From: a phage | Length of the DNA stretch: 64,000 nt | Reading direction: 5' to 3' (one strand) | Assembly (NCBI GenBank): GCA_022897995.1 | Contig: GCA_022897995.1_4763.1 | Shown: in pieces, positions 960-60,505 of the stretch | How the letters are laid out: each line of letters starts with the position of its first letter | How positions within the stretch are numbered: the stretch's first letter is position 1 | The notes under the pieces: generated by a model | What the model was told of the DNA's origin: nothing | The model's database searches: none | Seen by the model: only the letters and a program-made list of their open reading frames with translations | Program-made: the position numbers and the translations under genes

Positions 960-969
960 TTAATTAAAT

Positions 970-993
970 GCCGATCTTCGGATCGGCTTTTCT
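970..993 (+). terminator. intrinsic terminator
   Basis: GCCGATC-TTCG-GATCGGC hairpin followed by TTTTCT. Confidence 0.65.
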
Positions 994-2235
994 ATGGAGT
1001 GGCTTTATATGGCTTTCACAGTATCAATTAAATCTAACAAAAGATGTTTTCTTGCTGGAGATGGTTTCACCTTAACAGCGACTGTAGCAGGTGACGAACC
1101 ATTACCCAGCAATTTGACCTATACATGGACAAAAGACAACAAACCACACGAAAATAACACCGCTACGCTAACCGTAGCAGGTGCAACAAGTGAAAATGCG
1201 GGCAACTATAAAGTCACTGTACAAGATACCGATAGCGGGGAATCGGTAGAATCTGACGTTTTCCGTATGGAAGAAGCTGAATTAATCGTTAAGATCACCG
1301 AACCGCCGCAATTCTACGTACCAACACAAACAGACGTAGAATTACATGCAACAGTAAAATTTTCTGGTGGGAAGACTCCAGCAGACAACTATGAATTGCA
1401 CTATAGCTGGAGCAAGGGCGAAGAAGTTATAGACACAACACAGGATATCACGATCCAAGAATTTACAGCCGATAATAACGGCGTGTATACTGTCAAAGTA
1501 TGGGGCGAATCGGAAGATTCAGCCGATAGCGCATCCACTAAAATTATGCTGGCTACAATGAGCGTAGATCAGGATGTGGTAGAGTCAAAGACCGTAGCAC
1601 TAGGTAAGGAGATCTTACTTAATTATGTTGTGTCAGAGGACATTGTAGGCGATTCTAGCGGTATGCCTAAATTGACTATCAAACATAATTGGTATTTGCA
1701 ACGTGAAGGACAGCCGTCACCGACTCTGATCGGTAGTGAGGTCGGCGAAGCACTGGAAGGATTTTCTATCATGCCAGACGGTCATCTGTTCAAAGAGCGT
1801 GCGACTTACGATGATACAGCCAAATTCTGGTGTGTTGCTAAACTATATCAACAGATCGAAGGCGCAACAGTAGAACTTGCAGCACGTACAAGCAGAAAAT
1901 GTTCAATGGAAGTTGTTGAGTCTCTTCATAAAATGTTTCGTTACGTGCACCCGATCCCGTGGCGCAAAACTTCATTCATCTATATTGGATGGTGGGTATT
2001 TGACGAGATTGTTAAATTCAATGAGGCTGGCTTAGAGTGGCGTCACCGAGAAGTTTATTCAACCAGCAAGTACGCCAAAGATCTGGAGACAATCGCGGCA
2101 GCGGAAGAAAAATATAGTGATTGCACTTGCATGGAATCTCGCAATGGTTTCATGTATCAGTCCAAAGAGTTCCATAAACTGGACCGAGAGACGTTAGAGC
2201 GAGTTCTACACATTCGTGAAACGCCTCCTGCTTAA
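994..2235 (+). CDS. hoc: Hoc-like outer capsid decoration protein, second tandem paralog (alternative start ATG 1009 after GGAG)
   Basis: 413 aa; Ig-like repeats (NAGNYKVTV, NNGVYTVKV); C-terminal RYVHPIPWRKTSF..WVFDEI..ESRNGF shared with the preceding ORF. Confidence 0.6.
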   Translation: MEWLYMAFTVSIKSNKRCFLAGDGFTLTATVAGDEPLPSNLTYTWTKDNKPHENNTATLTVAGATSENAGNYKVTVQDTDSGESVESDVFRMEEAELIVKITEPPQFYVPTQTDVELHATVKFSGGKTPADNYELHYSWSKGEEVIDTTQDITIQEFTADNNGVYTVKVWGESEDSADSASTKIMLATMSVDQDVVESKTVALGKEILLNYVVSEDIVGDSSGMPKLTIKHNWYLQREGQPSPTLIGSEVGEALEGFSIMPDGHLFKERATYDDTAKFWCVAKLYQQIEGATVELAARTSRKCSMEVVESLHKMFRYVHPIPWRKTSFIYIGWWVFDEIVKFNEAGLEWRHREVYSTSKYAKDLETIAAAEEKYSDCTCMESRNGFMYQSKEFHKLDRETLERVLHIRETPPA

Positions 2236-3799: not shown

Positions 3800-4387
3800 A
3801 TGTTTGACCAGTTACAAGATCTATTTGGAGTAAAACCACTTCGTAGATGTGCTTTAATCGGCTCTAGAAAAGCGCCTAGCGACATTTTGATAATGGCTAG
3901 TACCATTGGGAGGGTATTGTCAGAAAATCGCGTTGTAGCGCATTCTGGAGGGGCTTACGGTATGGACAATGCTTTCATGAAGTATTACGATCCAGATTAT
4001 AGAAAAATTTTCATTCCAAATTGGAAGTTTTATGACCATAAGCATAACGGTCATGATGTGATTGCATGGCAAACCTTAGAACAAAAGAATCTGGCGATGG
4101 ATGAATTAGAACACGTTTATGATAATCCTCGTTCTATACCGTTATACATGCAAAATTTATTTTCTAGAAATGTTGCTCAAGTCTTAGGTGAGACACTTGA
4201 TGACCCTGTAGATTGTGTGATATTCTGGGCGCAAGAAGTTAATGGTATTGTTTCTGGAGGAACTAGAATTGCTGTCTATGTTGCTCGTAGACATGGGATA
4301 CCATGTTTTAACTTATATCATCAAGAAAATAGATCCGCCGTCGAAAAAATCTTGGGCGGATCTGATTTGTCCTGGTTAGATATTTAG
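3800..4387 (+). CDS. DprA/Smf-like Rossmann-fold (SLOG superfamily) protein
   Basis: GGAGG RBS then ATG 3800; motifs ALIGSRKAP and RVVAHSGGAYGMD match the DprA/Smf-LOG pattern; assignment from motifs only. Confidence 0.45.
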   Translation: MFDQLQDLFGVKPLRRCALIGSRKAPSDILIMASTIGRVLSENRVVAHSGGAYGMDNAFMKYYDPDYRKIFIPNWKFYDHKHNGHDVIAWQTLEQKNLAMDELEHVYDNPRSIPLYMQNLFSRNVAQVLGETLDDPVDCVIFWAQEVNGIVSGGTRIAVYVARRHGIPCFNLYHQENRSAVEKILGGSDLSWLDI

Positions 4388-5666: not shown

Positions 5667-5674
5667 TATTTATA
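5667..5674 (-). promoter_or_regulatory. T4-type late promoter (TATAAATA) for gene 24
   Basis: Plus-strand TATTTATA at 5667-5674, 38 nt upstream of start 5629. Confidence 0.6.
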
Positions 5675-5877: not shown

Positions 5878-6810
5878 TTATGGAGAATTTGGGGTTAATT
5901 CAGGGAACAGCGTACCAAAACCAAAATTACCGCTAGCGTCACGCTGGAATGTCATAACAAGGTCGACATAAACCGGATCTGTAAATCTATCAAATCTATC
6001 CGACCCAATATCAACCATGAACGCTAATTTAATCTCATTAGAATTTGAGATCGCAGCGTCAGCACATGCACCAAAAATTACCTGAGTATCTTTTGCCGTA
6101 TATGCATTGACCTGTATGTTGGTTGGTTTCATTACATCGTTAGACAAACCAGATAGTTCTACTCGTCCATTAAACGACGCCAGACTTTGACCACCGCCTA
6201 GATAATGAATATGACCACCTTGTGAAGATTGTGTCCAGTCCATTAGCATAACCTTAAATCTAGCCTCAAAACGCCCTTCCACGTAATATCGACCAGTTTC
6301 AAAGTTTTGTCTAATTGGTGTCCATGTGATGTGTGGTTTTCCGCTTACAGGATCGACAAGAGTCACACCTACGGCTGGCTTAATACTGACACTATCAAAT
6401 GAACGTGATAGCCAATTCCATGTTTGATTGTCTAGGTTTGGTAATTGTGGAATATTCAATCCATCTAATCGGCTGTGTGCTCGTGCTGCTTCCGATTCTG
6501 CGGTAGTCGCTTTAGTCAGTGCATCAGTTGCTTTGCTCATGGATTGCCCTGCCGTTCGATCAGCAACGTCCGCAGTTGATTTTGCAATCTCTGCCGTTCG
6601 ATGTGCTGAACTTGCTGTTTCTGTTATTACGTCATCGCACGCAATAACAAAATCAATTACAGGATCGATCAATTGAGTGTTGATTGAGTTGGAAATTCGT
6701 TCAACATCACTTTCCATTAGAGCATTAGATTCATTTCCTGTGAAATGAGTAATTTCACCTTGAACAAAATCATTTTGCAACTTGCTGATCTTTGCTTTAA
6801 TATCGGACAT
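5878..6810 (-). CDS. hypothetical late protein, coiled-coil N-terminus plus globular C-terminus (310 aa)
   Basis: GGGGTG RBS then ATG 6810; Ala/Thr-rich helical N-terminal third; part of the insertion between genes 23 and 24. Confidence 0.6.
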   Translation of the reverse strand: MSDIKAKISKLQNDFVQGEITHFTGNESNALMESDVERISNSINTQLIDPVIDFVIACDDVITETASSAHRTAEIAKSTADVADRTAGQSMSKATDALTKATTAESEAARAHSRLDGLNIPQLPNLDNQTWNWLSRSFDSVSIKPAVGVTLVDPVSGKPHITWTPIRQNFETGRYYVEGRFEARFKVMLMDWTQSSQGGHIHYLGGGQSLASFNGRVELSGLSNDVMKPTNIQVNAYTAKDTQVIFGACADAAISNSNEIKLAFMVDIGSDRFDRFTDPVYVDLVMTFQRDASGNFGFGTLFPELTPNSP

Positions 6811-6825
6811 GAATCACCCCGCTAA

Positions 6826-8544
6826 TTATTGTGCTTGCTCTGGAAGTGCTTGTATATTTTCTATAGTAGCACCCCATTTAACGGCATTTAAACGAGCTTT
6901 GTGCATATCGTCTTCTCCGACTATTGCCGCAAAACCCTTTTTAGCGTGGAAATTCGCCCATGTGTTATATGCTAGTGCACCTACGCGTTTTGCTGTGTCG
7001 TGTTCAACTTCATCAACCATCAGCATTGTGCGGAAAGGTGCAAATGCTACATCTGGGTTATCGTCTTGTGTCCATGAACCACCATTAAACGACACCTGCC
7101 ACCTGAACATCTCACCAGACGGAATTTGATTAATTCTCAACTTTAGAGATCTTGTTTTCTGGTTTTTCTGAGTTACGTCTAGTGGAACCTGATATCTAGC
7201 CGCTTGTCGTTCTCTACCATCATTCATCCTATGCCATGCGGTAACAACAAGCATAACCGGAATTGTGTTTGATGTTTTAATAAAACTAACATCAACTAAA
7301 AGTTCCATATCATAGCTACCAGATTTAGGCGCAACCCACCAATGGTCGGCATCAGCTTGTCGATCTGGCTCTTTAATCTGTGGTGTGCATCCATAGTTAT
7401 CATGAATGACATACTTCCACGGAATGTAAAAAGCACCACCGCCAGTTCCTGGATTTGTAACTTCGAGTAGATTTTGTGCAGTGGTAAACACGCTGGACAC
7501 GCGAGGGAAAGCATAAATGGTAGCACCACCAGTGTGATCGCTGATCTGTAACCATTCGGTCCATCGATCAGTTCTCTTTGTATAGGAACGGTGATACATT
7601 ACGCCATCAATGCTTGTTGCGATCTGCAATACATGATCTTTACATGCATGAACATCTACAGAACCATGCGTTTGTGTTCCATTTGGGCGGTTTGCGGACC
7701 CCTCAAAATAACAGAAACGACCCTGTTTCGTCAAGGAATTTAGGTCTAGCGTTTCTGGCGAAATTTCCGGTAGACGTTTACCCAGACTGGTTAACATCGC
7801 CTCCTGATCACCATTTAAACCACCGCCACCGCTTCCTTCCCCGCTTTGAGAGTTCCACTCACGCCATGCACCATTGTGTCGGATACGAGAGTAAACACCA
7901 CCATCAATAGAACGGACCACTTGAAGAATGCTACCATCGACGACATATACATCTGCGGACCCCTTATTCGCCATCATTGGAGGTTTGCCATAGGTTGCAT
8001 CACCTACCGGATAGCGTCCGGGTGATGTTGTTACATCCAGATTATTAATCGGATTCGTCGTAGTCCATTTTACTTCAATTGCAGATAGACGCTGCGCAAC
8101 GTTCGCTAATACTTCTGGCACTGGAAACACTAACGATTCTTGAGTTTCATCTGAATACGTGATCTCTAGAGTCCAGTTGCGATCGTCCTCGGACAAGTTC
8201 GCTTCGATTCTAGCAATACCACGACCATTTTCGCCCTTCTCACCAGGAATACCCTGTTCGCCCTGAATAACCCAGGTCATATCGACCCATTTGGAATTAT
8301 CGTATGGAGATTGCGACGTTTTACCCGTCCATAATTGGAGTTTAGCACCACAAACAATAATTGTTTTTAGTCGCTCCAATTCTGGAAAATGGGTGTTGAA
8401 ATATGCGTCTCGTTCCCCTTCATTTTCGAAACGGTGAGTATTTTTAATTCCGCTAGGTACGTTAGTTCCGATCTGAATACCGCCACCAGAACAACCACCA
8501 CTCACGGAACCAGCATTAATGATAGCTTGTGGATTTAGCTTCAT
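6826..8544 (-). CDS. collagen-like repeat containing protein, possible fibre or decoration protein (~572 aa)
   Basis: ATG 8544 after GGGGG RBS (ORF track starts at TTG 8568); Gly-X-Y run GEQGIPGEKGENGRG; repeated motif (ILQVVRSIDGGVYSRIRHNGAWREW / VLQIATSIDGVMYHRSYTKRTDRWTEW); Gly-rich linkers. Confidence 0.6.
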   Translation of the reverse strand: MKLNPQAIINAGSVSGGCSGGGIQIGTNVPSGIKNTHRFENEGERDAYFNTHFPELERLKTIIVCGAKLQLWTGKTSQSPYDNSKWVDMTWVIQGEQGIPGEKGENGRGIARIEANLSEDDRNWTLEITYSDETQESLVFPVPEVLANVAQRLSAIEVKWTTTNPINNLDVTTSPGRYPVGDATYGKPPMMANKGSADVYVVDGSILQVVRSIDGGVYSRIRHNGAWREWNSQSGEGSGGGGLNGDQEAMLTSLGKRLPEISPETLDLNSLTKQGRFCYFEGSANRPNGTQTHGSVDVHACKDHVLQIATSIDGVMYHRSYTKRTDRWTEWLQISDHTGGATIYAFPRVSSVFTTAQNLLEVTNPGTGGGAFYIPWKYVIHDNYGCTPQIKEPDRQADADHWWVAPKSGSYDMELLVDVSFIKTSNTIPVMLVVTAWHRMNDGRERQAARYQVPLDVTQKNQKTRSLKLRINQIPSGEMFRWQVSFNGGSWTQDDNPDVAFAPFRTMLMVDEVEHDTAKRVGALAYNTWANFHAKKGFAAIVGEDDMHKARLNAVKWGATIENIQALPEQAQ

Positions 8545-8551
8545 ATAATAA

Positions 8552-8860
8552 TTACCCCCGTTTAGCAAGATACACGGTTACAGTAGAATCATTGGAAACA
8601 GATTTTACTTTTGCCCTAATAAATGACCATAATGTTTCAAACGCTCCACCATCAGTTGCATATTCATTACCATCAGCTTTCAATTCTGAAATAGTGAACC
8701 AACCTTTGCCATCTAAGGAACCTTCTAACGAGGCTTCCGCAATGACTTTTTGCCCTTCCCTTGCACCTTCTACGGTCATTTGTACTGTCATATGCGTACT
8801 ATGAACGCAGTTTACCGACGCGGAAACGGCTGGAGTTTTGGTCTTTATAAGTGTGTGCAT
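8552..8860 (-). CDS. hypothetical late protein (102 aa)
   Basis: AAGGGGAG RBS then ATG 8860; TATAAATA late promoter ~39 nt upstream. Confidence 0.55.
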   Translation of the reverse strand: MHTLIKTKTPAVSASVNCVHSTHMTVQMTVEGAREGQKVIAEASLEGSLDGKGWFTISELKADGNEYATDGGAFETLWSFIRAKVKSVSNDSTVTVYLAKRG

Positions 8861-8898: not shown

Positions 8899-8906
8899 TA
8901 TTTATA
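8899..8906 (-). promoter_or_regulatory. T4-type late promoter (TATAAATA)
   Basis: Plus-strand TATTTATA 8899-8906 upstream of ORF starting 8860. Confidence 0.55.
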
Positions 8907-9021: not shown

Positions 9022-10605
9022 TTAGCAACCTTTAACCCATACACGGCGGAAGTATGCGTTTTTACCTACGCTGTCTTTGCTCAACATACCGGAGGTGATG
9101 CGAGCGGAAGGTGCCTGGGATTTGCTGTCTGCAAACGGGTTAATACCGATGCCATAGCGAGTCTTGAAGCCCAGAACCGGATGGAAAGACTGCGGATCAG
9201 TTGCACGCAGCGGAGTCAGAGCAACATACGGTGCATAGTAGATACCAGCATCCATTTCGTTGTCGCCTTTGTAACCTACAGTGAAGTAGTCCTGACGAGC
9301 ATACTGGTCGATGAATACTTTATACTTACCAGCCAGAACACCAGCGAAAACTGCTTTAGTGGTGTCGGTGTTCAGACCCTGTGCAGCACCCTGCATAGCA
9401 ACACTGATACCCTGATCAGCAGAAGCCAGAATGTTTACAACGTTACGGGAAGCGATAACAAAGTTACCAGCACCGCGACCAGTCTGACGAGCGATTTCAG
9501 CAGCTTCTTTGTCGATCTGGTAGATCAGAGATTTGAAGGATTCACCAGCCCAACGAGCACCGCGAGTATCGATCGGGTCTTGCAGGTCAAATACACCAGC
9601 TTTAGAACCAACGGTCTGAGTCATGCCAGTCTTACCAACCTGAGCGGTAAAGTTAATTACGTCAACGATTTCACGGTTGATTTCCAGCAGAACTTCGTTA
9701 GCCAGAATAGCATTCAGTTCAGCGTCAGCATCCATACCGTGTACAGCACGCAGATCCTGCGCAACTTCGATAGAATAACGAGCTTTCAGTTGGCGAGATT
9801 TCGCTTCAACTACCTGTTTGTCAATACGCATTGACATTTCGTTCCACGGGTTACGCTGAGAACCGTTAAAGCCTTCTTGCAGTTCCGCGATGGAAGTAGC
9901 CATACCAGCAGCAATTTCAGCCAGTTCTCCTTTTTCGATCAGCTTCATTACGCATTCATCGAGGGTATCGCCGGAAATAGTTGGGGTTACGGTAGAACCT
10001 TTAACGTTTTGCAGATATGCAATACCAGTTTCTTCGAATACATGATACACGATATCACCAGCATTAATACCAGTGCTTGCCGTCAGTTTCTGGAATGCAG
10101 TACCAGTCGGAGAGCTTGCTGTTGCATCTTTAGCTGCCAGAGAGCTATGATAAACATCAGGCGCAAACATTGGGTGGAATGCTTCGCGAGCATTACTTGC
10201 CAGAGGGTCGCCGCCGTATACAGAACGGATTGCGAAGATCTGGCTAGTCGGGGTGCTCATCGGCTGAACGCCACAGATATCAAATGCGATCAGGTTAGGA
10301 ATAGCACGGCGAACCATACCAATAACAGCCGGACCTACGTTGGTGATTGCACCAGTAGTTTGACCTGCGGCGATTTTATTTGCATCGTAACCGTGGTCGC
10401 CAGCAACTTCGGCTTCTGCGATAAAGCCACCGAATGCTTCAACAACTTTTTCATCCTTATAGATCGGGTCTACAGCAAAGTCCGCTTCCTGAGATTCCAG
10501 AATTTTAGCAACCAGTTTCTGCTTAGACGCAGTTGCGATTTCCGGCAGTTTTTCATTTTCCAGCAGCGGGGACCATTTTTCCATCAGTTCTTTGGTAGTT
10601 TTCAT
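9022..10605 (-). CDS. 23: major capsid protein gp23
   Basis: 527 aa; length, composition and position (after 22, before 24) match T4 gp23; classic late promoter upstream. Confidence 0.9.
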   Translation of the reverse strand: MKTTKELMEKWSPLLENEKLPEIATASKQKLVAKILESQEADFAVDPIYKDEKVVEAFGGFIAEAEVAGDHGYDANKIAAGQTTGAITNVGPAVIGMVRRAIPNLIAFDICGVQPMSTPTSQIFAIRSVYGGDPLASNAREAFHPMFAPDVYHSSLAAKDATASSPTGTAFQKLTASTGINAGDIVYHVFEETGIAYLQNVKGSTVTPTISGDTLDECVMKLIEKGELAEIAAGMATSIAELQEGFNGSQRNPWNEMSMRIDKQVVEAKSRQLKARYSIEVAQDLRAVHGMDADAELNAILANEVLLEINREIVDVINFTAQVGKTGMTQTVGSKAGVFDLQDPIDTRGARWAGESFKSLIYQIDKEAAEIARQTGRGAGNFVIASRNVVNILASADQGISVAMQGAAQGLNTDTTKAVFAGVLAGKYKVFIDQYARQDYFTVGYKGDNEMDAGIYYAPYVALTPLRATDPQSFHPVLGFKTRYGIGINPFADSKSQAPSARITSGMLSKDSVGKNAYFRRVWVKGC

Positions 10606-46898: not shown

Positions 46899-47113
46899 AA
46901 ATGACCTTTTATATCTTAGCAAGTATCATGCTTGTGATCTCTTCTGCCTTATTTGCATTTCTTACCGTTTGGGGGATCTGCACTGACGCGAAACCGTGGG
47001 ATATAGTAGAAAATACGGTTATGTTTATTATCAGTGTCATGTGTCTTTTTGATGCATTTAACTCTATCAAGGAAGAAGATCAAAAACGTCGCGAGAGAAA
47101 GCGATATAAATAA
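46895..47113 (+). CDS. small membrane protein (72 aa)
   Basis: GAGGT RBS then ATG 46895; hydrophobic N-terminal two thirds. Confidence 0.5.
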   Translation: MKMTFYILASIMLVISSALFAFLTVWGICTDAKPWDIVENTVMFIISVMCLFDAFNSIKEEDQKRRERKRYK

Positions 47114-56625: not shown

Positions 56626-56911
56626 GACTATCATTAACCTTGTTATGTGGACTTTTAATTTCGTTATTGTTATTGTGGCGGGTATTGAGATTGTCAAGCA
56701 ATATCTGATACAATCCAGAAATAAACATGTTGTAATTGATATGGACTCTCAAGGAAATAAGCTGATCCTGCTAGAAGACGGTCGGGAATATTGGGTAGGT
56801 TATCCAAAGACACTACGCGGATTTATCTTTGCTATGGGTGTTTGCTTCTTTTTCCTTTGTATCTGGGTTTATGTTGGTTTAGGTCTTGCTGGATTTTTGG
56901 AGATTAATTAA
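56618..56911 (+). CDS. small membrane protein (97 aa)
   Basis: GGAGGTG RBS; two hydrophobic segments. Confidence 0.5.
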   Translation: MLETIINLVMWTFNFVIVIVAGIEIVKQYLIQSRNKHVVIDMDSQGNKLILLEDGREYWVGYPKTLRGFIFAMGVCFFFLCIWVYVGLGLAGFLEIN

Positions 56912-57507
56912 TGGCACAACTATACTTCTACTATGCATCTATGAACGCTGGTAAGTCTACTTCCTTATTACAAAGTGCTTATAACTATACAGAACGTGAT
57001 ATGCGAGTATTAATTCTTAAACCAGCGATTGACAATCGAGATTCAGAAAGTGAAGTTGTTTCCCGAATTGGTCTAAGTGCTCCAGCGATCACATTCACTA
57101 AATCGGATGATCTTTTCGATTTGGTTTATCGTGAATCACTAGGTAAGCGTAGACCGGATCGCTGGCGTCCAGATGCTGTATTTGTAGATGAAGCCCAATT
57201 TATGACTAAAGAGCATGTTTTAGGCTTGTGTGCGCTTGTTGATGATGCAAATATCCCTGTACTGTGCTATGGCCTTCGCACCGACTTTCAGGGCAATCTA
57301 TTTGAAGGATCTGCGGCATTAATGGCATTTGCTGATAAACTGGTCGAAATGAAGGGTATTTGTCATTGTGGCAAGAAAGCGACTATGGTCCTTCGCGTAG
57401 ATAAAGATGGTAATGTTATTCGCGATGGTGCTCAAATAGAAGTTGGTGCAGAGGATAAATATGTTTCTGTGTGCCGTAAACATTTTATTGACGGTACTAC
57501 CAACTAA
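56911..57507 (+). CDS. tk: thymidine kinase
   Basis: 198 aa; P-loop SMNAGKSTSLL, ..VFVDEAQF.., zinc-binding CHCGKKAT..VCRKH; matches T4 tk. Confidence 0.9.
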   Translation: MAQLYFYYASMNAGKSTSLLQSAYNYTERDMRVLILKPAIDNRDSESEVVSRIGLSAPAITFTKSDDLFDLVYRESLGKRRPDRWRPDAVFVDEAQFMTKEHVLGLCALVDDANIPVLCYGLRTDFQGNLFEGSAALMAFADKLVEMKGICHCGKKATMVLRVDKDGNVIRDGAQIEVGAEDKYVSVCRKHFIDGTTN

Positions 57508-57534
57508 GAGTTAATCATAAATAAAGCCCCAGAT

Positions 57535-57542
57535 TATAAATA
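57535..57542 (+). promoter_or_regulatory. T4-type late promoter (TATAAATA) on the plus strand
   Basis: TATAAATA 57535-57542, 34 nt upstream of ATG 57576; inside the loop of inverted repeat CCCCAGAT..ATCTGGGG. Confidence 0.55.
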
Positions 57543-57575
57543 TAACTGAATATTTTCAATCTGGGGGAATGACTT

Positions 57576-57878
57576 ATGTCATTTATTCGTAAAACTCTAA
57601 CAGCGGCAATATGCTTGACTGCGGTCGGAAGCGTCAGTGCTGATCAATATGATCCAACTGGTGACTTTACTGATTATTTCGACGGTGCAATGATAGTATA
57701 TGTAAACAAAATATCTCCTTCCATTGAAACCAGCCAGAAATTTCATGCCCATATTATGAAGATGTATGCTCGTAGTAAATGTATGGATTCTAAGCAGTGT
57801 TTTATTATGGGGGAATATGCCGCACAACAATTTGTTATGTTGCATAATGTGGAGAATCGAGAACATGAAATTCAGTGA
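57576..57878 (+). CDS. secreted hypothetical protein with signal peptide (100 aa)
   Basis: GGGGGA RBS; signal peptide MSFIRKTLTAAICLTAVGSVSA. Confidence 0.5.
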   Translation: MSFIRKTLTAAICLTAVGSVSADQYDPTGDFTDYFDGAMIVYVNKISPSIETSQKFHAHIMKMYARSKCMDSKQCFIMGEYAAQQFVMLHNVENREHEIQ

Positions 57879-58263
57879 TTTTCGAAAGACTTCCGAAGAG
57901 GGAAAAGCTAATAAAGTTGACCGCTTTATCGGTGAATGTCTGATGAGTGTTACTTATATGCATTCTGCGCATTTTGGGGTAACTGGTCCTGGATCTTATG
58001 CAAAACATAAGGCTCTAGAAGAGTTCTATCTTGAAATGCAAGAATTGGTTGATAATTTCACTGAAACCAATATTGGGATCACTGGTCGTTATCAGCCAAC
58101 GTTGGTCGTCCGCAAGGAGATTAGCGAAATTGCCTATTTGCAAGAGTTAACGCAAATGGCTAGTGAGATTTATAATGATGTTGATAGCTCGTTACAGAGC
58201 GTTTTAGACGATATCAAAGTTCTATGCTTTAAAACCATTTATAAACTCACTCGACTGGCTTAA
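57865..58263 (+). CDS. hypothetical protein (132 aa)
   Basis: ATG 57865 after GGAGA (ORF track starts 57766). Confidence 0.45.
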   Translation: MKFSDFRKTSEEGKANKVDRFIGECLMSVTYMHSAHFGVTGPGSYAKHKALEEFYLEMQELVDNFTETNIGITGRYQPTLVVRKEISEIAYLQELTQMASEIYNDVDSSLQSVLDDIKVLCFKTIYKLTRLA

Positions 58264-58284
58264 TGCCAGTCACAAGGGGGATAC

Positions 58285-60429
58285 ATGCCAGAAGTAAAAG
58301 AAACTAGCATTAACACAACCATTTGGCTTCCTCATACTTTCGCGTGTTCAATTACTGCCGAATCGGAAGACCCATCTAAGACGAGGAAGGGTTATCATTG
58401 GAAAAAGGATGGTAAATTGGTCACTATGACCGATGCTCCGTCTTTTCCATTGAAGACAGTAAAGGAAGAGGACAAAACAGGCTGGTCTGTTAATGTTCGT
58501 GGGTATGCTCAAGATGACAATGAGTTTACTGGTGATTCTGTTGATATCGGTACGGAAAATTTCACCTTTGAATTGTTTGATAATCCATATGTAGAACATG
58601 TATACCCGCCACGGTCATTTATTGTTGGTGATGAAATAAAGGCAAAGATTGTTTTTCGTAGTCATATCCAGAATAATATTTCTGTAGACCTTTATTACAA
58701 CGATGGTTTGGTTGATTCCATTGATGGTGATCTAGGTTTAGACCATCGTGAATTTAAAATTGCAAAATTTGCGTGGCCTGAATTTTCCGGCACATATCGA
58801 ATGGAATTGAGCGATGAACATGATGATGTAAAATTTGTATATCCTTTCTTTGCTAGTATTGTCGAAAGTAAGGAAGTGTTTAACGTTCAAAAATACGCAC
58901 CTGCTTATTTTACCGTAGAAGATGATGCGCCGAATCAGGCCGAATATACTATTGTCCGCTACCGATTAGAGCGTGGTGATGGTACTTTGGTATATGAATC
59001 TAAAGATAAGACCTTGTATGTAACAAAACATGCTCAAGAGTCTGACGCCGGAGAATATGTTGCTTTTGTGCGTGCATATAAAGTTGTTAATGGTCCTGGG
59101 TCTGGTGAGCAATTCATCGATGGCGATAAACATCGCTTTACGGTAAATGTTAAGGAAAATGAGTTTTTCAGCCATGATTTTAGTGCTGTTGATTTTCGTT
59201 ATCCTTCTGGATCTACTGTAAACCTTGATATGCCAGTGATGCAAGCCGATAGCTCGTGGAACCGCCATTACGGTATGCTTAGTAACAACGTTTACTTTAC
59301 GTGGATGCTTGGCGGTAAGAAACTTCAAAGTAAAAAATATGGTGATGAAGGATACGACCGAATCACCCTATCTGGATTGCAATATGATAACAGCGTTGCG
59401 CTTCAATTGTTGGTTGCTCCTGCCAATCCAGCGGGTGAGCAGGTGATTCCTAACGGTCGTCCACTGTTTTATGACCGTCGTATGCTTGAGATTTATGATA
59501 AAGAGTATGATTATCGTAATATTGAAGTGGGTGAACCGATTGTTCTCAAGATCGTAGATCCTGAACCGCCAGCTAGTGATGATCCTGAACAAACACGAAC
59601 TTTGGTTATCACCAAAAACGACGTTAAAGTAACGGAACTACCGCTAGGCACTAAGGAATATAAGATCACTGACTCCGCTGACCGAGACCATAACGGAATC
59701 TGGGCGCATGAGTATCGTGATAGTCCGAGTAAAGATCCATTTAGTGCACATACCGATTTTGATATTGCTGGTCGCGCAACTTATCATGTTGAAGTTGTGC
59801 CAAATATGGAATTTGATGGTCCTCATCCGGTACAGGTGACGGAAGGGGATACGTTGACTATTGAAGCAACCATGCTTAAACCGCCAGCCTCATATGTTCC
59901 GACTTATGAGTTTAGCAAGAGTGGAGTTAAATTGCCAATTGCTGATGCAAGGACGCCGATTTATCGTAAGGCAAATGTTACCTTAGATGATGCTGGTGTT
60001 TATCGATTTGTTGCATTTGCTGATAAAAACAACAACGAAACTCTAGACCCAGGTGAGATCATCGGCTATACAAAATATGTTCAAGTTGTGGTTAATAAAC
60101 GTCCTGTTCGACCAGATGAACCTAAACCGGAAGTTAAAATTGTTACTCTGTTTAATGATTTTAGTAAAGGCCGATTTAGTCCGTGTCCGTATTGGGTAAT
60201 TGATGAACTTGTCGAACTGATGGAAGATCCGCATGGCTGGATGGGTAAACTTGAAGATGCTGTCTACTATGACTGGCAGATCACTATCTTTAATGAGTTC
60301 TTAAAAGGTAAAGATCTGTATCTTCAAGACTCCTGTAATGGTTATTGGGCTATTGTTCGTCAGAAAGACATGACAATCGAAACTGGTTACGGTCGATTTA
60401 AACACTATCACACAAATGGATTAGAGTAA
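58285..60429 (+). CDS. large Ig-like domain protein with Hoc-like C-terminus (candidate virion surface/decoration protein)
   Basis: 714 aa; AAGGGGG RBS; Ig-like signature DDAGVYRFVAF; C-terminal ..CPYWVIDEL..DSCNGYW.. weakly resembles the Hoc capsid-binding domain. Confidence 0.55.
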   Translation: MPEVKETSINTTIWLPHTFACSITAESEDPSKTRKGYHWKKDGKLVTMTDAPSFPLKTVKEEDKTGWSVNVRGYAQDDNEFTGDSVDIGTENFTFELFDNPYVEHVYPPRSFIVGDEIKAKIVFRSHIQNNISVDLYYNDGLVDSIDGDLGLDHREFKIAKFAWPEFSGTYRMELSDEHDDVKFVYPFFASIVESKEVFNVQKYAPAYFTVEDDAPNQAEYTIVRYRLERGDGTLVYESKDKTLYVTKHAQESDAGEYVAFVRAYKVVNGPGSGEQFIDGDKHRFTVNVKENEFFSHDFSAVDFRYPSGSTVNLDMPVMQADSSWNRHYGMLSNNVYFTWMLGGKKLQSKKYGDEGYDRITLSGLQYDNSVALQLLVAPANPAGEQVIPNGRPLFYDRRMLEIYDKEYDYRNIEVGEPIVLKIVDPEPPASDDPEQTRTLVITKNDVKVTELPLGTKEYKITDSADRDHNGIWAHEYRDSPSKDPFSAHTDFDIAGRATYHVEVVPNMEFDGPHPVQVTEGDTLTIEATMLKPPASYVPTYEFSKSGVKLPIADARTPIYRKANVTLDDAGVYRFVAFADKNNNETLDPGEIIGYTKYVQVVVNKRPVRPDEPKPEVKIVTLFNDFSKGRFSPCPYWVIDELVELMEDPHGWMGKLEDAVYYDWQITIFNEFLKGKDLYLQDSCNGYWAIVRQKDMTIETGYGRFKHYHTNGLE

Positions 60430-60439
60430 AATGTAGTCA

Positions 60440-60466
60440 AAGCCATCCGAAAGGGTGGCTTTTTTA
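60440..60466 (+). terminator. intrinsic terminator
   Basis: AAGCCATCC-GAAA-GGGTGGCTT hairpin plus T6. Confidence 0.7.
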
Positions 60467-60476
60467 TTTTTAGGTG

Positions 60477-60505
60477 TTGACAACCGGACCGTGGTATAGC
60501 ATAAT
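60477..60505 (+). promoter_or_regulatory. sigma70-type early promoter (PeSL-like)
   Basis: TTGACA 60477-60482, 17-bp spacer, CATAAT 60500-60505. Confidence 0.65.

Follow-up and report, generated by a model that had tools for sequence, protein, structure and literature searches.

Hoc fibres mediate adherence to mucus and bacterial surfaces and serve as the main T4 platform for nanoparticle display. This article concerns ORF714, an open reading frame (ORF) in a 64-kb stretch of phage DNA (contig GCA_022897995.1_4763.1; the whole stretch of 64,000 nucleotides (nt) is called the window), which lies behind the lysis-inhibition gene rI and encodes a string of immunoglobulin-like (Ig-like) domains followed by what appears to be a diverged Hoc anchor. 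The C-terminal domain of T4 Hoc combines a sheet of four strands with a bundle of three helices, and Hoc proteins are characteristically acidic, with an isoelectric point (pI) of about 4–5 (PMC10385173). The capsid-contacting and conserved Hoc residues listed by Fokine et al. include Y293, H295, R300, W309, W310, D313 and E355-S-R-N-G359 (PMC10385173). Genomes with several Hoc-type genes, and Hocs of great length, are known already. Serratia phage Muldoon encodes a Hoc of 1174 amino acids (aa) with 10 Ig domains and a second Hoc of 314 aa, and Enterobacter phage PG7 has two (PMC10385173).

The operon in which ORF714 resides also has described counterparts. In T4, the genes follow the order tk, rI.1, rI, rI.-1, and the sequence TATAAATA comes directly behind the stop codon of tk. 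Two promoters serve the T4 rI operon, a late one between tk and rI.1 and an early one lying 3.3 kb upstream, and its product RI.-1 is proposed to modulate lysis inhibition (Golec et al., PMC2962797). For T4 gene e and I-TevI, a control has been described where the ribosome-binding site is sequestered in read-through early mRNA while the late mRNA, which starts inside the structure, is translated (PMC3014915).

The region of the window studied here resembles Krischvirus genomes (RB49/Phi1-like T4-type phages). By gene content and order, it is the Krischvirus rI lysis-inhibition operon extended by a third gene, which has the following parts:

58285–60429, + strand: ORF714, third cistron, 714 aa, 81.6 kDa, pI 4.9.
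58285–60102, + strand: six tandem Ig-like beta-sandwich domains, residues 1–606 (AlphaFold2, Foldseek).
60103–60165, + strand: Pro/Glu-rich linker and a stretch aligned to Hoc beta-strand 1, residues 607–627 (joint alignment).
60166–60408, + strand: alpha/beta domain, residues 628–708, with helix 1 carrying YWVIDE, three helices and a DSCNGY loop (profile comparisons).

The initial annotation of this DNA, made from the letters alone, had described a promoter box, an inverted repeat, three ORFs and the peptide motifs DDAGVYRFVAF, CPYWVIDEL and DSCNGYW, all of which are found where it placed them. It had also noted that the C-terminus weakly resembles the capsid-binding tail of Hoc. Three profile tests strengthen this to homology between the C-terminal ~80 residues and the Hoc capsid-binding domain, and at the level of sequence profiles we judge the homology of the ORF714 tail to the Hoc anchor to be established. 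An hhalign comparison of the C-terminus of the ORF714 family with a Hoc C-terminal alignment gives 95.2% and E 2.6e-8, with 61 columns in exact register. Besides 13 diverse homologues, the Hoc alignment comprises T4 Hoc and both canonical Hocs of the window. The homologues were drawn from a search with full-length Hoc; a word-indexed search with the C-terminal 113 aa gave 3 proteins and was unusable for a profile. PHROG 1149 (‘Hoc-like head decoration’) matches whole ORF714 at E 2.4e-9 over residues 511–698, up to the end of the profile, and matches the C-terminal 110 aa alone at E 4.5e-6 over the last 85 profile positions. When a hidden Markov model (HMM) of the Hoc C-terminus is compared with the 969 stop-to-stop segments from all six frames of the window, the two canonical Hocs come first (Hoc1, 3e-47; Hoc2, 5.6e-38), followed by ORF714 at 8e-6 and the next segment at 0.59. 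Against the PDB sequences, phmmer aligns residues 610–688 with residues 285–361 of T4 Hoc at E 0.1.

The retained residues and the predicted fold are consistent with this homology. In the joint alignment, ORF714 keeps Hoc residues W310 (as W637), D313 (as D640), S356, N358, G359 and Y360, and exchanges W309 for Tyr (Y636) and E355 for Asp. An AlphaFold model of the domain alone has a core predicted local distance difference test (pLDDT) of 78–86 and shows a strand, three helices and three more strands, an order that fits the sheet and helix bundle described for Hoc (PMC10385173). Searched against BFVD, the model retrieves the family itself and the Phi1 remnant of the gene, and then, at ranks 3–6, four T4-type phage proteins among the next five (probability 0.87–0.94). 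We take these four to be Hoc-type proteins; two are named capsid or outer-capsid. The pI of ORF714 is 4.92 as a whole and 4.65–5.55 per domain. The anchor is ~20–27% identical to Hoc and has a family-specific C-terminal strand. Within the family, the motifs SPCPYWVIDELVEL, QDSCNGYW and IETGYGRFKHY are nearly invariant and unlike both canonical paralogues of the genome. ORF714 is thus best described, from its sequence, as a diverged member of the Hoc family with a predicted capacity for capsid binding.

The remainder of ORF714 is modelled as a string of six Ig-like domains, in agreement with the Ig-like signature that had been proposed for it. AlphaFold2 on the 17-sequence family alignment (mean pLDDT 82) yields all-beta domains with limits at about 1–98, 99–192, 193–292, 293–404, 405–505 and 506–606, and a small alpha/beta domain at 636–700 after the linker. 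Foldseek against the PDB matches six-Ig contactins at E 2.9e-18 and many Ig-superfamily chains, numbering in the hundreds, with 273 PDB matches at E <=1e-3. At the sequence level, the Ig signal is weak and limited to domain 6, which matches Ig_3 (E 0.008) and the phage Ig-like protein 9ncf_S (E 1e-4), and has weak matches to Ig domains of T5 pb10 and other Ig-bearing decoration proteins (E 0.18–0.43). No signal peptide, membrane or hydrophobic segment is found in the translation.

Two canonical Hoc genes lie at the start of the window:

3–959, + strand: canonical hoc paralogue 2, C-terminal 318 codons, running off the window start (Ig_3 / I-set Pfam matches; HMM E 5.6e-38).
994–2235, + strand: canonical hoc, RB49-type (phrog_1149 E 2e-79; 91% nucleotide identity to the annotated hoc of RB49 and Phi1).

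For the RB49-type hoc, 1009 is the probable start, with a product of 408 aa. Both canonical paralogues keep the full YVHPIPWR / WWV.DEI / ESRNG set, the tail of paralogue 2 reading YVHPIPWR..GYWVMDEI..ESRNG. In SSG23, a 90%-identical phage, paralogue 2 has 846 aa and lies between inh and hoc. ORF714 had been proposed as a third, much larger Hoc-like protein; it is a third paralogue and larger than the RB49-type Hoc, but it is not the largest, given the length of paralogue 2 in SSG23. A terminator-like hairpin (GCCGATCTTCGGATCGGC followed by TTTT) stands between the canonical paralogues at 960–1008 (+ strand), and no TATAAATA with <=1 mismatch occurs directly before hoc at 994/1009. Elsewhere in the structural region, ORFs of 580 aa (6826–8568, − strand) and 310 aa (5878–6810, − strand) lie between the major capsid gene and a gp24-like gene, the latter ORF with an alanine-zipper match; these may be further structural or decoration proteins.

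Probably, ORF714 is an optional third fibre decorating the head. The protein would be made in the cytoplasm late in infection, its C-terminal anchor would dock at the gp23 hexamers of expanded heads, and an Ig fibre of ~2x Hoc length would project outward. There it would either share sites with the two canonical Hocs encoded beside inh or compete with them. Several observations weigh against this reading. ORF714 has lost Y293, H295, R300, W306 (replaced by Pro) and R357 (replaced by Cys684, or by Lys in the member of the family that is most distant), and confidence in hexamer-centre binding is held down mainly because these residues, named for T4 as capsid contacts or as conserved, are missing. 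The YVHP..R motif of Hoc is not retained in residues 607–627, and the part that aligns with Hoc beta-strand 1 has a model pLDDT of <50 (residues 609–633). Two canonical Hoc paralogues are already present for the same binding site, and ORF714 is named only ‘hypothetical’ in every record inspected. As a single query, the C-terminal 110 aa do not reach Hoc by phmmer in a set of 1.84 billion representatives, where the only matches are the family itself, a chimeric fragment of 118 aa (P0017) and one artefact of low complexity (P0018). When ORF714 is compared by BLASTP with the Hoc encoded in the window, 27 residues match at E 0.22, which is no evidence alone. T4 Hoc (8t1x_X) ranks 1 of 350,542 PDB chains in Foldseek, but at E 0.44 and a template modelling (TM) score of 0.41–0.44, and, as the alignment behind the domain model included Hoc sequences, the fold matches do not stand apart from what the sequences had shown.

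It is also possible, if rather unlikely, that ORF714 derives from Hoc but has been repurposed for some other place on the virion (the vertex, neck, tail or whiskers, or elsewhere on the capsid) or for a non-virion partner, in which case it would be displayed beside the two canonical Hocs and not in competition with them. The five lost residues fit such a change, as do the family motifs that set ORF714 apart from canonical paralogues retaining the full Hoc set; in addition, the Hoc anchor is reused in other architectures, for instance in phage PG7 (PMC10385173). Against this, ORF714 retains the ES.NG-type loop, which lies at the capsomer centre in T4, and W310/D313 of helix 1, its secondary-structure order is that of the Hoc anchor, and no other partner is suggested by any search.

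In the protein database, ORF714 has homologues in 16 clusters (formed at 90% identity), which are 706–718 aa long and 44–91% identical to ORF714 of the window. A scan of IMG/VR with the family alignment produced 39 pattern matches, none of which was confirmed, and the family was not found there. The order tk-rI-rI.-1-ORF714 is kept in 5/5 metagenomic representatives looked up, including those with 59%, 58% and 44% protein identity. The dN/dS of ORF714 is 0.08–0.12, indicating purifying selection where the gene is intact. The idea that ORF714 is a decaying or non-functional gene in the window was rejected, as its frame is intact, its length is kept across the 16 clusters and dN/dS is ~0.1. The anchor is the most conserved part, with a mean pairwise identity of 87% (77% to the most distant member) compared with 59% (38%) for the distal Ig1. 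ORF714 evolves much faster than its surroundings: nucleotide identity to Brandy is 87.6%, against 95–99% for tk, rI and rI.-1, and in JK32 and G2248 it is 75–77%, against 88–97% for the flanks.

The region is matched by 59 related phage records, the closest being Brandy, at 91% across 3.2 kb of searched sequence, together with SSG23, SFHK24 and UPWr_E1. ORF714 is intact in six of the 59; its carriers include Brandy, SSG23, SFHK24, UPWr_E1, JK32 and G2248. In the three other records that were examined it is a deletion remnant:

L002 (Phi1), 3880–4170: ORF714 remnant.
L013 (ECD7), 1165–1400: ORF714 remnant.
L014 (TB34): ORF714 remnant.

In Phi1, window sequence 57401–58373 is kept and resumes at 60222, a 1,857-bp deletion between GGAAGAyCC microhomologies, and Phi1 ORF084.1 is the 3′ remnant of ORF714. 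ECD7 and TB34 have a different deletion, where the window sequence is kept to 58428 and resumes at 60391. All three share an ATG-to-ATA change at the ORF714 start codon. Because this change is shared while the deletion junctions differ, a single inactivation is suggested, followed by separate erosion of the gene. ORF714 is accessory, and its inactivation and deletion took place on at least two occasions in the RB49/Phi1/ECD7 lineages. Most sequenced relatives most likely lost it by deletion, while rI and rI.-1 are kept in most Krischvirus records. Hoc paralogue 2 is similarly reduced: Phi1 (ORF168.1), RB49 and most other records have only its last ~110 nt, and most records match it only from window position 848 onward. 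The clade of the window therefore carries three Hoc-anchor proteins, against one in RB49 and Phi1. Separately, the metagenomic protein P0017 carries the ORF714 anchor (81% identity) as its last 62 residues, fused to an unrelated N-terminus, and may likewise have arisen as the locus decayed or was rearranged.

The operon that carries ORF714 has the following further features:

56911–57507, + strand: tk, thymidine kinase, early gene upstream of rI (PF00265 E 1e-51).
57527–57566, + strand: hairpin with 5′ arm CCCCAGAUU (57527–57535) and 3′ arm AAUCUGGGG (57558–57566), by folding.
57535–57542, + strand: T4-type late promoter box TATAAATA of the rI operon, 33 nt from the ATG at 57576.
57563–57567, + strand: rI Shine-Dalgarno sequence GGGGG, 8 nt before the ATG (sequence; invariant in the alignment).
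57576–57878, + strand: rI, RI antiholin, 100 aa, periplasmic lysis-inhibition regulator (PF24205 Antiholin E 1e-23; phrog_1246 ‘lysis inhibition’ E 2.5e-26).
57865–58263, + strand: rI.-1, 132 aa, DUF5856 (PF19174 E 2.4e-20; phrog_858 E 3.5e-43).
58253–58271 (extending to 58246–58280), + strand: stem-loop GACUGGC-UUAAU-GCCAGUC, whose loop holds the stop codon of rI.-1, by folding.
60439–60472, + strand: intrinsic terminator, 10-bp stem then T-run (terminator scan; annotated terminator in G2248).
60477–60505, + strand: sigma-70-type early promoter TTGACA-17-CATAAT of the next gene block (11/12 matches).

The first two cistrons had been described as a secreted small protein with a signal peptide and a protein of 132 aa; the two are RI antiholin and RI.-1. 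Phi1 carries annotated rI and rI.-1 at the same position. The gene rI.1 is absent as first cistron in the window and in Phi1, where tk is followed directly by rI. The start of rI.-1 overlaps the end of rI by 14 nt, and ORF714 starts 22 nt past rI.-1 with its own Shine-Dalgarno sequence, AAGGGGGA. By its sequence signals, the operon ends at 60439–60472, with the early promoter at 60477–60505 as the downstream boundary. The site downstream is plastic: the window has a 69-aa ORF after ORF714, and in the 59%-identity relative (L007, 6246–7214) ORF714 is followed by a C5 DNA methylase (PF00145) and then a Dmd homologue.

Early genes of the window lie on the + strand and the structural module on the − strand, from about 4.4 to 42 kb. 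The initial annotation had placed a late promoter inside the early region. The box is real, but the late promoter that it marks is not novel, being conserved in the T4 rI operon; its spacing is like that of the window's other late promoters and, judged by position, it is the homologue of the documented T4 promoter. Such a promoter between tk and rI is to be expected, and not unusual, because the operon is the known rI lysis-inhibition operon. Perfect copies of TATAAATA number 9 in the window against 6.2 expected, so the count itself is not enriched. Seven of the nine, nevertheless, stand 27–38 nt 5′ of an ATG-initiated ORF on the same strand, and six of these seven precede − strand ORFs in the structural-gene part, the box of the major capsid gene (9022–10605, − strand) standing at 33 nt, a spacing identical to that of rI. 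The rI box is taken as more than chance because the position of the boxes, and not their number, is non-random. Two perfect boxes, at 47105–47112 (+ strand) and 5667–5674 (− strand), are without an ATG-started ORF of >=60 aa within 150 nt downstream; the latter is inside a TTG-start gp24-like ORF, and probably marks a later true start. Another perfect box, at 8899–8906, stands ahead of a 102-aa ORF just upstream of the 580-aa and 310-aa ORFs described above.

No second late box with <=1 mismatch was found in a scan between 57543 and 60600, and late expression of ORF714 should therefore derive from the rI late promoter. A candidate for a separate ORF714 late promoter, TATAAACT at 58245–58252, has two mismatches and lies inside coding sequence, and was rejected. 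The late transcript would comprise rI, rI.-1 and ORF714 and end at 60439–60472.

The promoter box is embedded in a hairpin. The inverted repeat CCCCAGAT / ATCTGGGG that had been reported around it is confirmed and extends to 9 bp (CCCCAGATT at 57527–57535, AATCTGGGG at 57558–57566). The first base of the box is the last base of the 5′ arm and the rest of the box lies in the loop, while the 3′ arm contains four of the five G residues of the rI Shine-Dalgarno sequence, which pair with an upstream C-run. RNA from 57505–57600 folds at -29.6 kcal/mol (z -6.0), with 0/200 dinucleotide shuffles as good, whereas RNA from 57549 onward, modelled as the late transcript, folds no better than shuffles (z -1.1). 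The TATAAATA box and a stem covering the Shine-Dalgarno sequence are present in 10/10 related loci examined, and the box itself is invariant. The arm sequences vary among these loci, reading UUCCCCCAA / UUGGGGGAA in L007 and CCUUAA / UUAGGG in L010. In L009 a different stem of 18 bp (AAGCCAUUCCUUUAUAA / UUAUAGGGGGAUGGCUU) overlaps the box, covers the Shine-Dalgarno sequence and extends to the start codon. In the alignment, 88.5% of cells are paired, and compensatory double changes occur at 2/10 pairs (C-G to U-A; G-C to A-U). The covariation score is 0.225 against 0.140 in shuffles, is reached by 0/500 shuffles and exceeds all slid registers; with a small sample of 8 sequences, it lends support but falls short of proof. 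The L009 stem falls in different MAFFT columns and was counted as breaking some pairs, although the fold of L009 itself hides the Shine-Dalgarno sequence still more completely. A smaller hairpin, GAAUGAC-UUAU-GUCAUUU at 57568–57585 (+ strand), places the rI start codon at the edge of loop and stem. It is predicted in most Krischvirus relatives examined, has only 3 bp in L007 and is replaced by the long stem in L009.

From this anatomy we infer a translational gate on rI, set by a late promoter within a hairpin. Early read-through mRNA from tk would have both arms and its rI ribosome-binding site would be closed, whereas late mRNA, starting a few nt past the box in the loop, would have no 5′ arm and would be translatable. 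The late start position inside the loop is assumed from T4, which weighs against the proposal. Quite improbably, the inverted repeat is mainly a weak terminator or a 3′ protective hairpin for early tk mRNA, with incidental overlap of the ribosome-binding site. The stem does begin 20 nt past the tk stop codon, and the automatic annotation of TB34 places a terminator here, on the opposite strand. On the + strand, however, no U-run follows the stem, on which ground an intrinsic terminator was rejected, and the terminator scan called no terminator-like site between tk and rI. Moreover, the 3′ arm is the Shine-Dalgarno sequence itself in every relative, even in L009, where the stem is moved and longer and still spans from this sequence to the start codon, and the late box lies in the 5′ arm or between the arms in every case.

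A second structure stands between rI.-1 and ORF714. RNA from 58236–58310 folds at -17.4 kcal/mol (z -2.7), and the outer helix of the minimum free energy structure pairs part of the ORF714 Shine-Dalgarno sequence. In the stem at 58253–58271, the 3′-arm changes of Brandy and Phi1 result in G-U wobbles, and one pair is broken in JK32; a resembling stem is present in L007 and absent from L009. This stem-loop may couple translation of ORF714 to that of rI.-1.

Two further ideas are improbable, namely that the anchor has changed its specificity, so that up to three fibre types would occupy non-competing capsid positions, or that the supply of ORF714 is tied to the RI programme. In the latter case, the hairpin-gated late transcript, the overlap of rI and rI.-1 and the stem-loop at the rI.-1 stop codon would chain translation together, and ORF714 output, and with it head decoration, would track translation of the lysis-inhibition genes. 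Each of these would represent a novel mode of patterning or regulating T4-type head decoration. A role for ORF714 in lysis inhibition or superinfection with rI and rI.-1, for example as a cytoplasmic scaffold or sensor and not a virion protein, is very unlikely: it could draw on the rI / rI.-1 linkage, kept in all representatives of the 16 clusters examined down to 44% identity, and on the modulation proposed for RI.-1 (PMC2962797), but ORF714 is without a signal peptide or membrane segment while RI acts in the periplasm, an Ig string with a Hoc anchor is the architecture of a virion decoration, the T4 position after rI.-1 holds unrelated small ORFs and would thus be a plastic insertion site, and the lysis-inhibition genes do not need ORF714, since rI and rI.-1 persist in most Krischvirus records after its loss.

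The main novelty is a diverged Hoc subfamily that is missed by BLAST from Hoc and annotated as hypothetical wherever it was inspected. It is also new that ORF714 stands third in the lysis-inhibition operon, that it is polymorphic in presence and absence and leaves decay products that can be identified, and that rI has a late-promoter hairpin sequestering the Shine-Dalgarno sequence. The six-Ig subfamily widens the known range of the Hoc anchor and shows which anchor residues can change. The results suggest that some natural Krischvirus isolates carry three head fibres, where the laboratory references RB49 and Phi1 have one and deletion remnants; such fibre differences are relevant when choosing therapeutic Krischvirus phages. 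Through the rI hairpin, a gene of lysis regulation would join the few T4-type genes whose gate is a late promoter in a stem that sequesters the ribosome-binding site. The advance is at the level of annotation and does not overturn current understanding.

Compared with the Hoc proteins of T4 and RB49 (PDB 3SHS, 5VF3, 8T1X), ORF714 has the same arrangement of an Ig string N-terminal to a C-terminal alpha/beta anchor, and the anchor is homologous by profile. It also shares with them an acidic pI, a conserved anchor with variable Ig domains, the status of a non-essential accessory gene and an upstream late promoter. It differs in having six Ig domains instead of three, in being without Y293, H295, R300, W306 and R357, and in its location in the rI operon, ~55 kb from the window's hoc locus and not beside inh and gene 24; capsid binding is, for ORF714, a prediction. 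T5 pb10 and other Ig-bearing decoration proteins (PDB 5LXK, 8ZVI) share a weak sequence match in Ig domain 6, but their capsid-binding domains are unrelated.

Like the T4 rI operon, the operon of the window has a late box right after tk and rI followed by an overlapping rI.-1, and both early and late transcription are expected. Unlike it, rI.1 is missing in the Krischvirus relatives examined, the box sits in a hairpin sequestering the Shine-Dalgarno sequence that is absent from the T4 sequence, and a 2.1-kb Hoc-like gene occupies the place of the small mobD.x ORFs. That hairpin follows the plan of T4 gene e and I-TevI, with the 5′ arm upstream of or overlapping the late box and the Shine-Dalgarno sequence in the 3′ arm, and late transcripts would likewise be without the 5′ arm. 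In contrast to those genes, the gate read from the anatomy of this sequence would act on rI, for which we found no such description. Finally, as in Muldoon and PG7, more than one Hoc-anchor protein is encoded per genome, with long Ig strings. Here there are three paralogues, and the third is undetectable by BLAST from Hoc and sits in a lysis-regulation operon.

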